From positions 1 to 64,000 of the IMG/VR virus record IMGVR_UViG_3300044911_002386: 64,000 nucleotides of DNA; one strand, written 5' to 3'. Below the pieces are notes generated by a model. The model did not search any database. It had not been told where the DNA came from and saw only the letters and a list, made by a program, of their open reading frames with translations. Source of the DNA: a virus. Below are positions 15,860 to 34,022 of this stretch, one piece after another. Numbering within the stretch: position 1 is the first letter of the stretch; every line of letters starts with the position of its first letter. The position numbers and the translations under genes are program-made.

Positions 15860-16255
15860 CTACGCGACGAGTTCTATCTCTTTCGTGTCGTTCTCGGGTG
15901 TCGGCGGTTCAAGCAATTCTTTCTCAAGGCTTTTACGGTTGCCGTACATCCAACTCTGAACCGCGATGTGGCGAAACCAGTCGTTGATCGACGGAATACG
16001 CCCCAAATCTTCTTGTACGTGTTGTTCGCCGATATAGCGAACCATTACCTCGCGTCCGGCAGAATTTGTAATAGTGTGGCCGAAAATCCTTTCCGCCATA
16101 AAGATACCTTCTGAATGGTGCCGCAGGGCTCGATGCCGGAAATCTGCCATGTGGCTTTTAGACTCATCGAACCAGTCGTGAATGGCTTGATAGTCTTCGG
16201 GTTTGCCGCCCCATTTTTTGACGCTTGAAAGTGCGTGATGGTAAGGGTGGGCCAT
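15860..16255 (-). CDS. DUF6915-like protein
   Basis: MAHPYHHALSSVKKWGG...IHDWFDESK...HRALRHH...EQHVQEDLGRIP. Confidence 0.85.
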   Translation of the reverse strand: MAHPYHHALSSVKKWGGKPEDYQAIHDWFDESKSHMADFRHRALRHHSEGIFMAERIFGHTITNSAGREVMVRYIGEQHVQEDLGRIPSINDWFRHIAVQSWMYGNRKSLEKELLEPPTPENDTKEIELVA

Positions 16256-18156: not shown

Positions 18157-18542
18157 TAGTAACGCCTCACATCACGGCTAGACTCGGTGTAATAGGTCGT
18201 ATGGTCAACAACTATCCGGCCTGTTTTAGTTGTAATTTTGATAGTGCCTTCGCCGCCTTCGTTGTTTTCGAATCCAACGGGCAGCAGTTCCCACAATTCA
18301 CGCTCGACGTCTTTAAGCGTAAAACCGCCGGTGAACACGGTCGTCACGTCCGAGAAATGAAATTCTTCTTCTTCGTTGGCGATAGAAAATTCAAAGTCGC
18401 TGCAGCTGTCGCCGGAACCTGAGTATGTTACGCACATACTTTTCCATCCGGCAGCGTACAGCTCTTTGCAGTATTTTTTGATTTTCTGCGCGTGGTCTAT
18501 AGCCGGAGCTTTGCCGATTATTTTACGCAGTTCAAGCTCCAT
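18156..18542 (-). CDS. DUF6878-like protein (second copy)
   Basis: YSGSGDS...GFENNEGGEG; start moved to ATG 18542. Confidence 0.7.
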   Translation of the reverse strand: MELELRKIIGKAPAIDHAQKIKKYCKELYAAGWKSMCVTYSGSGDSCSDFEFSIANEEEEFHFSDVTTVFTGGFTLKDVERELWELLPVGFENNEGGEGTIKITTKTGRIVVDHTTYYTESSRDVRRY

Positions 18543-31578: not shown

Positions 31579-32271
31579 TCAGACCTTGACGAGCGACTTC
31601 GAAGCACGACGCTTCTTCATCGCAGCCTCAGTGGGCTCTTCGCCGTACACGGCACTCATGCCAGGCGTGAGGCAATCAGCCGTGAAGCGCCCGAACCTAG
31701 GCCGCCACTCGCACAGGCCGCACATCGTGCCCGCTTTCTTGATCCAGCGATCAAGTTGGGCAAAATTGATGATTGAGTCCTCGAACGAAATCGACACAAC
31801 AGCCGACCAGTCATGGAAGATTGGCCGAGTCGAGACGACGCGAGACTGCTGCCGCGCCACCAGCGTGGTGAACCGGAAACCTTCGGCTTCCGGAGTCGGG
31901 CGGGGCGACGTGTCTTCAAACATTGCTTCCGGCTCGCGCGGACCGGCGTACTCTAACTTAAAGAATCCCGGGGGCGCCGCGAACACAGCGCACTTGGCGA
32001 GCTGGCCTTCCTTGGTCTTTCGAGCCGCGGCGTTAATCGCTGCTACGATGGTCGCACCGGGCAGTACGGGACCCAACTCCTCGTGCATATGCAGGCTGCC
32101 GAGGAACTCAATATGCCCCATCTCGATGTGGTCGGCGTCGGTCTTGACGCGCTTCGAACTGACGCTCTTGAGCGCCTTAGAGAACTTGTTCAGCGGGTTT
32201 GCCATCTGAACGTTTTTCACAACCATCGGGCCGTCCCCGGTGATCTTGTAATCAACATTAACCCAACTCAT
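31579..32271 (-). CDS. Cas7/RAMP-like RRM-fold protein, putative effector for the adjacent GGY-NN array (Vipr-like)
   Basis: N-terminal YKITGDGPMVVKN strand, VLPGATIVAAI helix, SRVVSTRPIFHDW, C-terminal Gly-rich loop AGTMCGLCEWRPRFGRF; ATGA-coupled to the HNH gene. Confidence 0.75.
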   Translation of the reverse strand: MSWVNVDYKITGDGPMVVKNVQMANPLNKFSKALKSVSSKRVKTDADHIEMGHIEFLGSLHMHEELGPVLPGATIVAAINAAARKTKEGQLAKCAVFAAPPGFFKLEYAGPREPEAMFEDTSPRPTPEAEGFRFTTLVARQQSRVVSTRPIFHDWSAVVSISFEDSIINFAQLDRWIKKAGTMCGLCEWRPRFGRFTADCLTPGMSAVYGEEPTEAAMKKRRASKSLVKV

Positions 32272-32585
32272 TGATCTATGTCCTTCCGTTGATGAATCGT
32301 GGGAACAATGTAATTACAGCCCAAGTCTTTGTTTTTGTAGCGACGAGCTCGTATTACATTTGTTATTGCTTCGTGACACTCGCTGCATAGCGTAATTAAA
32401 TCTTTTTCGACATCCTCTTCGCCAAACCGTTCATACGTCTTGTGATGCACTTCGAGCTGATATACAGATCCGTCGTGCAAACACGTTTGGCATTCATAGT
32501 TGTCAATCACTAGACGTTGCGTGCGCTTTTCACACCAGTCATATCTGGCCATGCGCACGGCATAATTTAACGTCGTTGAATCCAT
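32268..32585 (-). CDS. HNH endonuclease
   Basis: W..KR..RL..DNYECQTC...LEVHHKTY...DLITLCSECH; AGGGG RBS. Confidence 0.88.
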   Translation of the reverse strand: MDSTTLNYAVRMARYDWCEKRTQRLVIDNYECQTCLHDGSVYQLEVHHKTYERFGEEDVEKDLITLCSECHEAITNVIRARRYKNKDLGCNYIVPTIHQRKDIDQ

Positions 32586-32596
32586 TTGTTACCCCT

Positions 32597-32629
32597 GGTT
32601 TATGTGTAGTTTCCGCAGCACATAAAACC
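32597..32629 (-). other. Hairpin at the 3' end of the array, just upstream of the HNH RBS
   Basis: Plus strand GGTTTATGTG...CACATAAAACC inverted repeat. Confidence 0.5.
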
Positions 32630-33457
32630 GCAACCTACCCTAATTGTTTTGAAAGAAAAAACCAAACCCAACGTCACCCTGCGTTACCTTACCGGACGTT
32701 ACCCGACCTTACCGGACCATATTTTGTTTGAAAGAAAAAACCAGACCTGACCAAACCCCAGCTTATGCCACCCCACCGAGCCAAACCCTATTTTGTTTGA
32801 AAGAGAAAACCAGACCTTACCGTGCCTGACGTTACGCTACCGAACCAGACCGCACCCTAAATTGTTTTGAAAGAAAAAACCGAACCAAACCCAATAGCGC
32901 CATGCGTTACCGAACGAAATCAAACGTTGCCAAAACAGACACTACCGAACCGTACCGGACCTAACGCAAATTATTTGAAAAAACCATACCGAAAGCTACC
33001 GGACAAAACGCAACGATACCGGACCTGACCGCAAAATTTTGAGAAGAGAAAACCAAACAAAACCGAGCCTAACGATACCCTGCCGTACGCTTGTTGAGAA
33101 AAAAACCATACCTGACCTGATCCCGCCATACCGTACCATGCCGTACCGGACAAGACCCTACACGACGTTACAACACCTTATATGTTTGAAAGAAAAAACC
33201 AGATCTGACCAAACCCCAACTTACCCTGCCCCACGCTACAGTTTTGAAAAAGAAAAACCCTGCCACACCGTACCAAACCTAACCCGACGGCATTCGACCG
33301 AAGCTAACCACAAAGTTTTGAAAGAAAAAACCATACCCGATCGAACGTTACAACACCTCACGTCACCAGACCCGACCTAACGATAAAGTTTTGAAAGAAA
33401 AAACCTAACCTTACGCCGCCATACCGAGCCGGACCTGACCTTACGCCAGCCGACCAT
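32624..33457 (-). repeat. Non-coding array of 11 GGY-NN pentamer units separated by a conserved U-rich delimiter; putative guide-RNA array
   Basis: Plus-strand delimiter TTTGAAAGAAAAAACC or variants at 32648, 32727, 32796, 32866, 32974, 33038, 33093, 33185, 33243, 33317 and 33390, followed by 11, 9, 9, 17, 9, 7, 14, 8, 10, 10 and 10 in-phase NN-RCC pentamers (hand count); strand inferred from flanking genes. Confidence 0.92.
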
Positions 33458-33949: not shown

Positions 33950-34022
33950 AGCCGGCGGCGGGAGTCGAACCCGCAACCTACTGATTACAAATCAGTTGCG
34001 CTGCCAATTGTGCCACGCCGGC
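33950..34022 (-). tRNA. tRNA-Thr(TGT)
   Basis: GCCGGCG/CGCCGGC acceptor; ACTGA-TTTGTAA-TCAGT; GCGGG-TTCGACT-CCCGC. Confidence 0.95.

Follow-up and report, generated by a model that had tools for sequence, protein, structure and literature searches.

What does a long phased array of GGY/NN pentamers do in the genome of an uncultured 168-kb tailed phage, and, if its variable dinucleotides act as guides, how are they read and at what are they aimed?

A phased array ahead of HNH and Cas7-like genes

The array occupies positions 32641-33457 on the minus strand of the window (the whole 64,000-nucleotide stretch of DNA analysed here), with genes for an HNH protein and a Cas7-like protein downstream of it, in a 167,811-base virus record that carries terminase and tail genes and holds no other long phased GGY tract. 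Read on the minus strand from 33457 to 32641, it consists of 11 tracts of 8-18 NN-GGY pentamers, each followed by a conserved U-rich 3' tail of 13-20 nt that ends in CAA(A). The features of the locus, all on the minus strand, are as follows; vrRNA denotes a predicted guide RNA, each given together with its U-rich 3' tail.

31579-32271, minus strand: vipr, encoding a 230-aa RAMP/Cas7-like putative guide-binding protein with homology to SUSP1 Vipr
32268-32585, minus strand: accessory (vap) HNH nuclease gene, 105 aa, PF01844 (E 2.6e-8), sharing 4 nt with the start of vipr
32641-32720, minus strand: vrRNA U1, 12 pentamers (32661-32720); sense match, 21-23/24, to a gene that precedes a family-A polymerase in integrative elements
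32721-32789, minus strand: vrRNA U2, 10 pentamers; 18/20 on an AEP primase motif, by itself no better than chance
32790-32858, minus strand: vrRNA U3, 10 pentamers; target not found
32859-32968, minus strand: vrRNA U4, 18 pentamers; DUF5906-type helicase gene, antisense, 28-31/36
32969-33032, minus strand: vrRNA U5, 10 pentamers; target not found
33033-33091, minus strand: vrRNA U6, 8 pentamers; a short unit orthologous to sister-phage guides with matches in pglX, itself 11/16 there
33092-33179, minus strand: vrRNA U7, 15 pentamers; target not found
33180-33242, minus strand: vrRNA U8, 9 pentamers; relative of U2 with the same AEP motif, best 15/18 in host-family AEP loci
33243-33311, minus strand: vrRNA U9, 11 pentamers; target not found
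33312-33384, minus strand: vrRNA U10, 11 pentamers; 18-19/22 on a small gene that lies, in these same elements, about 1-2 kb away from the target of U1
33385-33457, minus strand: vrRNA U11, 11 pentamers; Walker A codons of the helicase family matched by U4, sense, 19-20/22

The first-pass annotation had listed eleven variable strings on the plus strand. Its letters are exact throughout, but the meaningful strand is the minus strand, on which NN-GGY is followed by the U-rich tail; moreover, each string stops one dinucleotide short, omitting the 5'-most pair of the RNA strand, and the units thus hold 16-36 informative nt rather than 14-34. The strings are distinct, as had been stated, but not all independent, for U2 and U8 have 13 of 16 bases in common and are aimed at one motif. 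The claim that variation falls mostly on two of the five positions is borne out by the positional entropy over 125 pentamers, which is 2.00 and 1.93 bits at the variable positions and 0.51, 0.63 and 1.10 bits across the scaffold triplet. The scaffold reads GGY in 83/125 pentamers, NGY in 112/125 and CGT in 19/125. Because positions 32200-33183 recur without a difference in a contig from another lake run, the array is not an assembly artefact. At the locus we found no CRISPR array, and the neighbouring genes are not cas genes; nor did we detect a stable fold in the tails, a sigma-70-type promoter or a convincing terminator, or any Rfam family nearby besides tRNA. A tRNA-Thr gene lies at 33950-34022, 500 bases upstream of the array, and is one of eight tRNA calls genome-wide.

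Homology to SUSP1 Vipr and linkage to the HNH gene

VIPR is a phage RNA-guided DNA-targeting system composed of Vipr and of vrRNAs with GGY/NN units and a 3' tail, which read DNA with a wobble-aligned skip of one nucleotide, in vitro and in vivo (10.64898/2026.04.26.720920); structures of the Vipr of Escherichia phage SUSP1 include PDB 36pp (10.64898/2026.04.26.720927). The 230-aa protein of the window has no Pfam hit and matches SUSP1 Vipr with a phmmer E of 2.6e-26, a profile E of 4.8e-56 and 32-33% identity; it also matches the SUSP1 genome itself. Its structural model (pLDDT 91) has as its closest folds the Csm/Cmr/Cas7 RAMPs (Z 9-10). Because this Cas7-like protein matches a solved Vipr, we assign the locus by sequence to VIPR, as a system of eleven predicted guide RNAs, vipr and an HNH gene. 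The hallmarks found here comprise a stand-alone RAMP with RRM, thumb and G-loop, GGY/NN tracts (for which the criterion is at least 4 repeats, typically 9-16) with 3' tails, vipr accompanied by one accessory gene and no CRISPR array, a one-nucleotide wobble skip and the lack of a self-target. The guide-contacting SUSP1 residues R138, W178, R179, K33 and R39 correspond here to R149, W189, R190, K35 and R41; in the SUSP1 structure these retained residues hold G2, Y3 and the DNA backbone (10.64898/2026.04.26.720927). By contrast, the two readers of G1 are changed, H17 to K19 and D177 to E188. K19 is limited to the eight closest Vipr sequences, and its putative link to the relaxed first scaffold base (the CGT pentamers) is only suggestive, as it represents one evolutionary event; degenerate scaffolds in VIPR have already been reported (10.64898/2026.04.26.720920). 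With this Vipr as query, no close relative was found in GTDB genomes.

The HNH gene lies directly upstream of vipr in 11/13 loci, down to 36% Vipr identity, and its residues H47, H48 and H71 and both CxxC motifs are invariant among 18 homologs. This linkage and the invariant catalytic histidines mark it as a true accessory gene; more distant HNH homologs likewise stand upstream of Vipr homologs (tblastn), and an HNH domain is listed among the Vap proteins (fig. S21, 10.64898/2026.04.26.720920). One distant vipr without HNH adjoins, directly upstream, a DUF5906 helicase gene (L113:3001-6594) of the family that is targeted by the guides described below.

Turnover of units between sister phages

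Seven further loci from the same phage clade have arrays at the same position, in which units are gained and lost whole. Strain L004 (run X22), whose Vipr is 98% identical, keeps five units and lacks U7-U10; the loss (window 33096-33396) joins within tails, and two different units replace U2-U3. Further unit variants occur in run X16. In units shared by two strains, NN positions differ at 1/118, scaffold positions at 5/177 and third codon positions of vipr at 26/231; the array is therefore not decaying, given how far NN divergence falls below that of vipr third positions, and recent recombination could contribute to the low value. At 15/16 positions, a sister-phage guide is the reverse complement of U8, which implies that one site is targeted by the two phages on opposite strands and in a common register. 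Unit-by-unit turnover and both-strand guides at one site make the writing or acquisition of vrRNAs tractable in lake time series. In another sister phage (L008:895-1090), a short extra GGY/NN tract directly follows a tRNA gene, away from the main array, and is a possible solo vrRNA.

Reading of the guides with a one-nucleotide gap

The first-pass annotation had proposed that the dinucleotides are read with a fixed gap of 1 nt that skips codon wobble positions. We compared 39 guides of the phage clade, with 50 shuffles each, on two sets of host-family mobile-element DNA fetched around target hits. At gap 1, 8/39 and 9/39 guides beat all 50 shuffles in the first and second set, respectively; as the sets were partly picked with gap-1 patterns, U1, U2, U4, U11, L006_5 and L008_7 do not count as independent evidence on the gap, whereas the other guides do. 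At gaps 0, 2 and 3, the same test yielded 0, 1 and 0 guides in the first set and none at any of the three in the second. Only gap 1 thus surpassed the shuffled controls, as proposed, and the skipped base is codon position 3 wherever a match lies in the frame of an identified gene. The code itself is not new, for it is the published VIPR code, shown in vitro and in vivo (Yoon et al. 2026, 10.64898/2026.04.26.720920); the present data test the wobble-skip rule independently and with controls in a distant phylum, and the rule holds. Scanning the phage's own genome at gaps 0-3 gave no self-target above shuffles, in keeping with an earlier search of the window by eye.

The gap test also bears on whether the array has a guide function at all. 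A decaying pentamer satellite, or a protein-binding DNA array of the iteron or operator type, would accommodate the third of pentamers that depart from GGY and the several guides that lack a target. The adjacent Vipr homolog, the conservation of NN between strains and the occurrence of codon-phased matches at one gap only all contradict it; the gap test effectively refutes this reading, to which we attach almost no probability. The view taken in the first-pass annotation, that the array is not a decaying satellite, agrees with the latter two observations.

Guide matches in mobile elements of the probable host family

A gap-1 pattern built from U4 (its 5' half) and the ortholog L006_5 retrieved 14 metagenome contigs, each of which carries the pattern within a single gene family, on the antisense strand and wobble-phased. 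The gene encodes a DUF5906-type helicase of about 700 aa, on which U4 matches 28-31 of 36 positions and L006_5 up to 31/32; the 16 bases of U4 that were not part of the search pattern match at 10-13 positions (mean 11.2), compared with about 4 expected. Elements that bear this helicase carry an integrase, an excisionase and a family-A polymerase, and are found in Planctomycetota and Pirellulales genomes. The helicase family is also hit by U11, in 3/171 family genomes and always at its Walker A codons (19-20/22; control 0). U1 hits 8/176 family genomes, all in one gene upstream of the polymerase (21-23/24; reversed-pattern control 0), and U10 matches 18-19/22 positions of a small gene in the same elements as U1, with 0.012 such matches expected by chance after correction for 39 guides. 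Guides that had played no part in choosing the targets fall on the same elements as well: L008_2 (23/24), L006_3 (22/26), L009_3 (19/22), L002_2 (22/24) and U10 (19/22), with corrected chance expectations of 2e-6 for L008_2 and 3e-4 for L002_2. U2 matches an AEP primase motif at 18/20 on a 2.4-kb contig, where 1.2 matches are expected and the hit is by itself at chance level; it is corroborated by a sister-phage guide that matches the opposite strand at the same site (24/28). The AEP contig is not long enough to reveal the element around it, whereas the helicase and polymerase-side genes belong to integrase-bearing elements of one Pirellulales family. Significant targets were not found for five of the eleven guides (U3, U5, U6, U7 and U9), and U8 has a match at motif level only. 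A search of 171-176 Pirellulales-family genomes gave no match for U3, U7 or U9, and matches of U7 and U9 in GTDB genomes proved to be unrelated short ORFs. Assignment of U5 to a RuvC motif was unsupported (16 hits at three mismatches, with 24 expected), as was that of U9 to a prim-pol.

None of the window guides has a perfect match (the best are 23/24, 20/22 and 31/36), and phage and matched elements derive from different samples. The guides might therefore owe their matches to conserved protein motifs of mobile elements, the true targets being other phages or satellites with homologous genes. The imperfect matches, with the same mismatches recurring across copies, would fit this explanation, as would the wide distribution of Walker A and AEP motifs and a search scope of one metagenome scan and eight viral scans. 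Exact scans of viral contigs with U4 (3' part), U7, U2 and U9 returned chance hits or nothing, and the phage itself has no homolog of any targeted gene. Since the helicase family matched by U4 was not found in viral contigs, and since several genes within the same families of elements are matched by different guides of five phages, also at sites outside motifs, we regard such other targets as unlikely and favour the elements themselves. Among the matches listed for 86 ORFs of the elements, there is one small terminase and no capsid, portal or tail family; the elements may be satellites or defence-carrying islands.

The phage shares with the targeted elements a DUF6915 gene (61.6% identity), a neighbouring gene and an SprT-like gene, located at window 15920-16255 and about 18159-18308 and at about 125290-125597 of the genome. 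These shared genes suggest gene exchange and a common host, and together with the targets they indicate that the phage probably infects freshwater Pirellulales. The guide targets by themselves yield a putative host assignment for this uncultured 168-kb phage. One record titled Candidatus Kuenenia (L094, G004) is grouped in the searched Pirellulales family and is probably mislabelled. A contig that bears a targeted element (L151, minus strand near base 539) contains a GGY-phased tract, either a candidate element-borne decoy vrRNA or a product of chance.

Proposed mechanism and the role of the HNH protein

We consider it very probable that this tailed phage employs VIPR with guides aimed at conserved replication genes of host-resident, integrase-bearing elements, and that it stops these elements during infection. 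Gene order suggests that the minus strand would be transcribed through the array, the HNH gene and vipr, and the array RNA may then be resolved into units at the U-rich tails. By analogy with SUSP1, Vipr would polymerise with one subunit per pentamer, burying the GGY scaffold and presenting the NN pairs, which would read double-stranded DNA at two bases out of three, as the gap test supports here; the filament would bind its target in an R-loop triplex, as expected from the same homology. To judge from the sequence matches, the guides are aimed at the positions of element replication genes that determine amino acids. Binding of Vipr would block transcription of these genes, the coupled HNH protein probably nicks or cuts the bound DNA, and resident elements would be kept from replicating or interfering during infection, much as has been demonstrated for SUSP1 and its satellite.

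Alternatively, the system could work by repression only, as do SUSP1 filaments, with an HNH protein that does not cut, is regulatory or serves cassette mobility (homing). We hold this to be possible though rather doubtful: all experimentally characterised VIPRs act by repression, and the discovery preprint assigns Vaps that are nucleases to the cellular types III and V, but the catalytic histidines are invariant across the 18 homologs and HNH stays beside vipr even at 36% Vipr identity. Homing would further need guides that point at genes flanking the cassette, and no decoded guide does so, the own-genome scan being negative. If HNH does cut as we propose, the two proteins (230 and 105 aa) would form a compact, PAM-free programmable nuclease.

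Relation to known systems

The system, the code and HNH accessory genes are already published; what we add is a set of decoded targets, an inferred host and the BREX lead described below. Like the type II VIPR of SUSP1, the locus has a homologous Vipr, GGY/NN vrRNAs of similar length and a one-nucleotide wobble skip, with targets on both strands, no self-target and a phage set against host-resident elements; the SUSP1 system suppresses a resident satellite, in a case of satellite conflict (10.64898/2026.10.15.759431). It differs in having eleven units in one upstream array rather than four, U-rich tails of 13-20 nt with no stable fold detected rather than a pseudoknotted tail, an HNH gene in the place of vap1, a relaxed G1 (CGT 19/125) with K19/E188 for H17/D177, and targets that are replication genes of planctomycete elements without detected capsid genes. 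VIPR types III and V likewise have an accessory gene predicted to encode a nuclease (figs S21-S22, 10.64898/2026.04.26.720920). Those types are described as enriched in the defence islands of cells and directed against viruses, whereas the present system is phage-encoded and aimed at host-integrated elements. The fold, with RRM core, thumb and G-loop (Z 9-10), resembles the Cas7/Csm3/Cmr4 RAMPs of class 1 CRISPR; unlike these systems, the locus has no repeats or cas genes, its guides are non-contiguous, and there is no excess of matches at gap 0. In the VIPR preprints searched we found no mention of this class of targets, which comprises the replication modules of integrative elements in which no capsid genes were detected and, for the sister phages, a BREX gene.

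Sister-phage guides matching a BREX gene

Two guides from sister phages match a conserved stretch of pglX in phase (21-22/24 and 22/26; chance about 4e-4 each); because these guides are orthologs, the two matches count as one observation. The targeted pglX, a BREX methyltransferase gene, lies in a brxB-brxC-pglX-pglZ-brxL operon beside the replication module of the element. U6 is an 8-unit ortholog of the pglX guides (15/16) but matches pglX itself at only 11/16, which is chance level, and any anti-defence claim therefore rests on the phage clade and not on the window genome. We put forward tentatively, as something short of an even prospect, that the HNH-armed VIPR of the clade is a programmable anti-defence weapon that cuts or silences element replication genes and pglX in the host chromosome, in which H17K may relax the first scaffold base. 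The BREX-bearing elements encode an integrase and a family-A polymerase and occur in freshwater Pirellulales (L144:14262 to L145:19998 in G047:C7, and L146 in G013:C2). One of them also holds a SIR2-type candidate defence gene.
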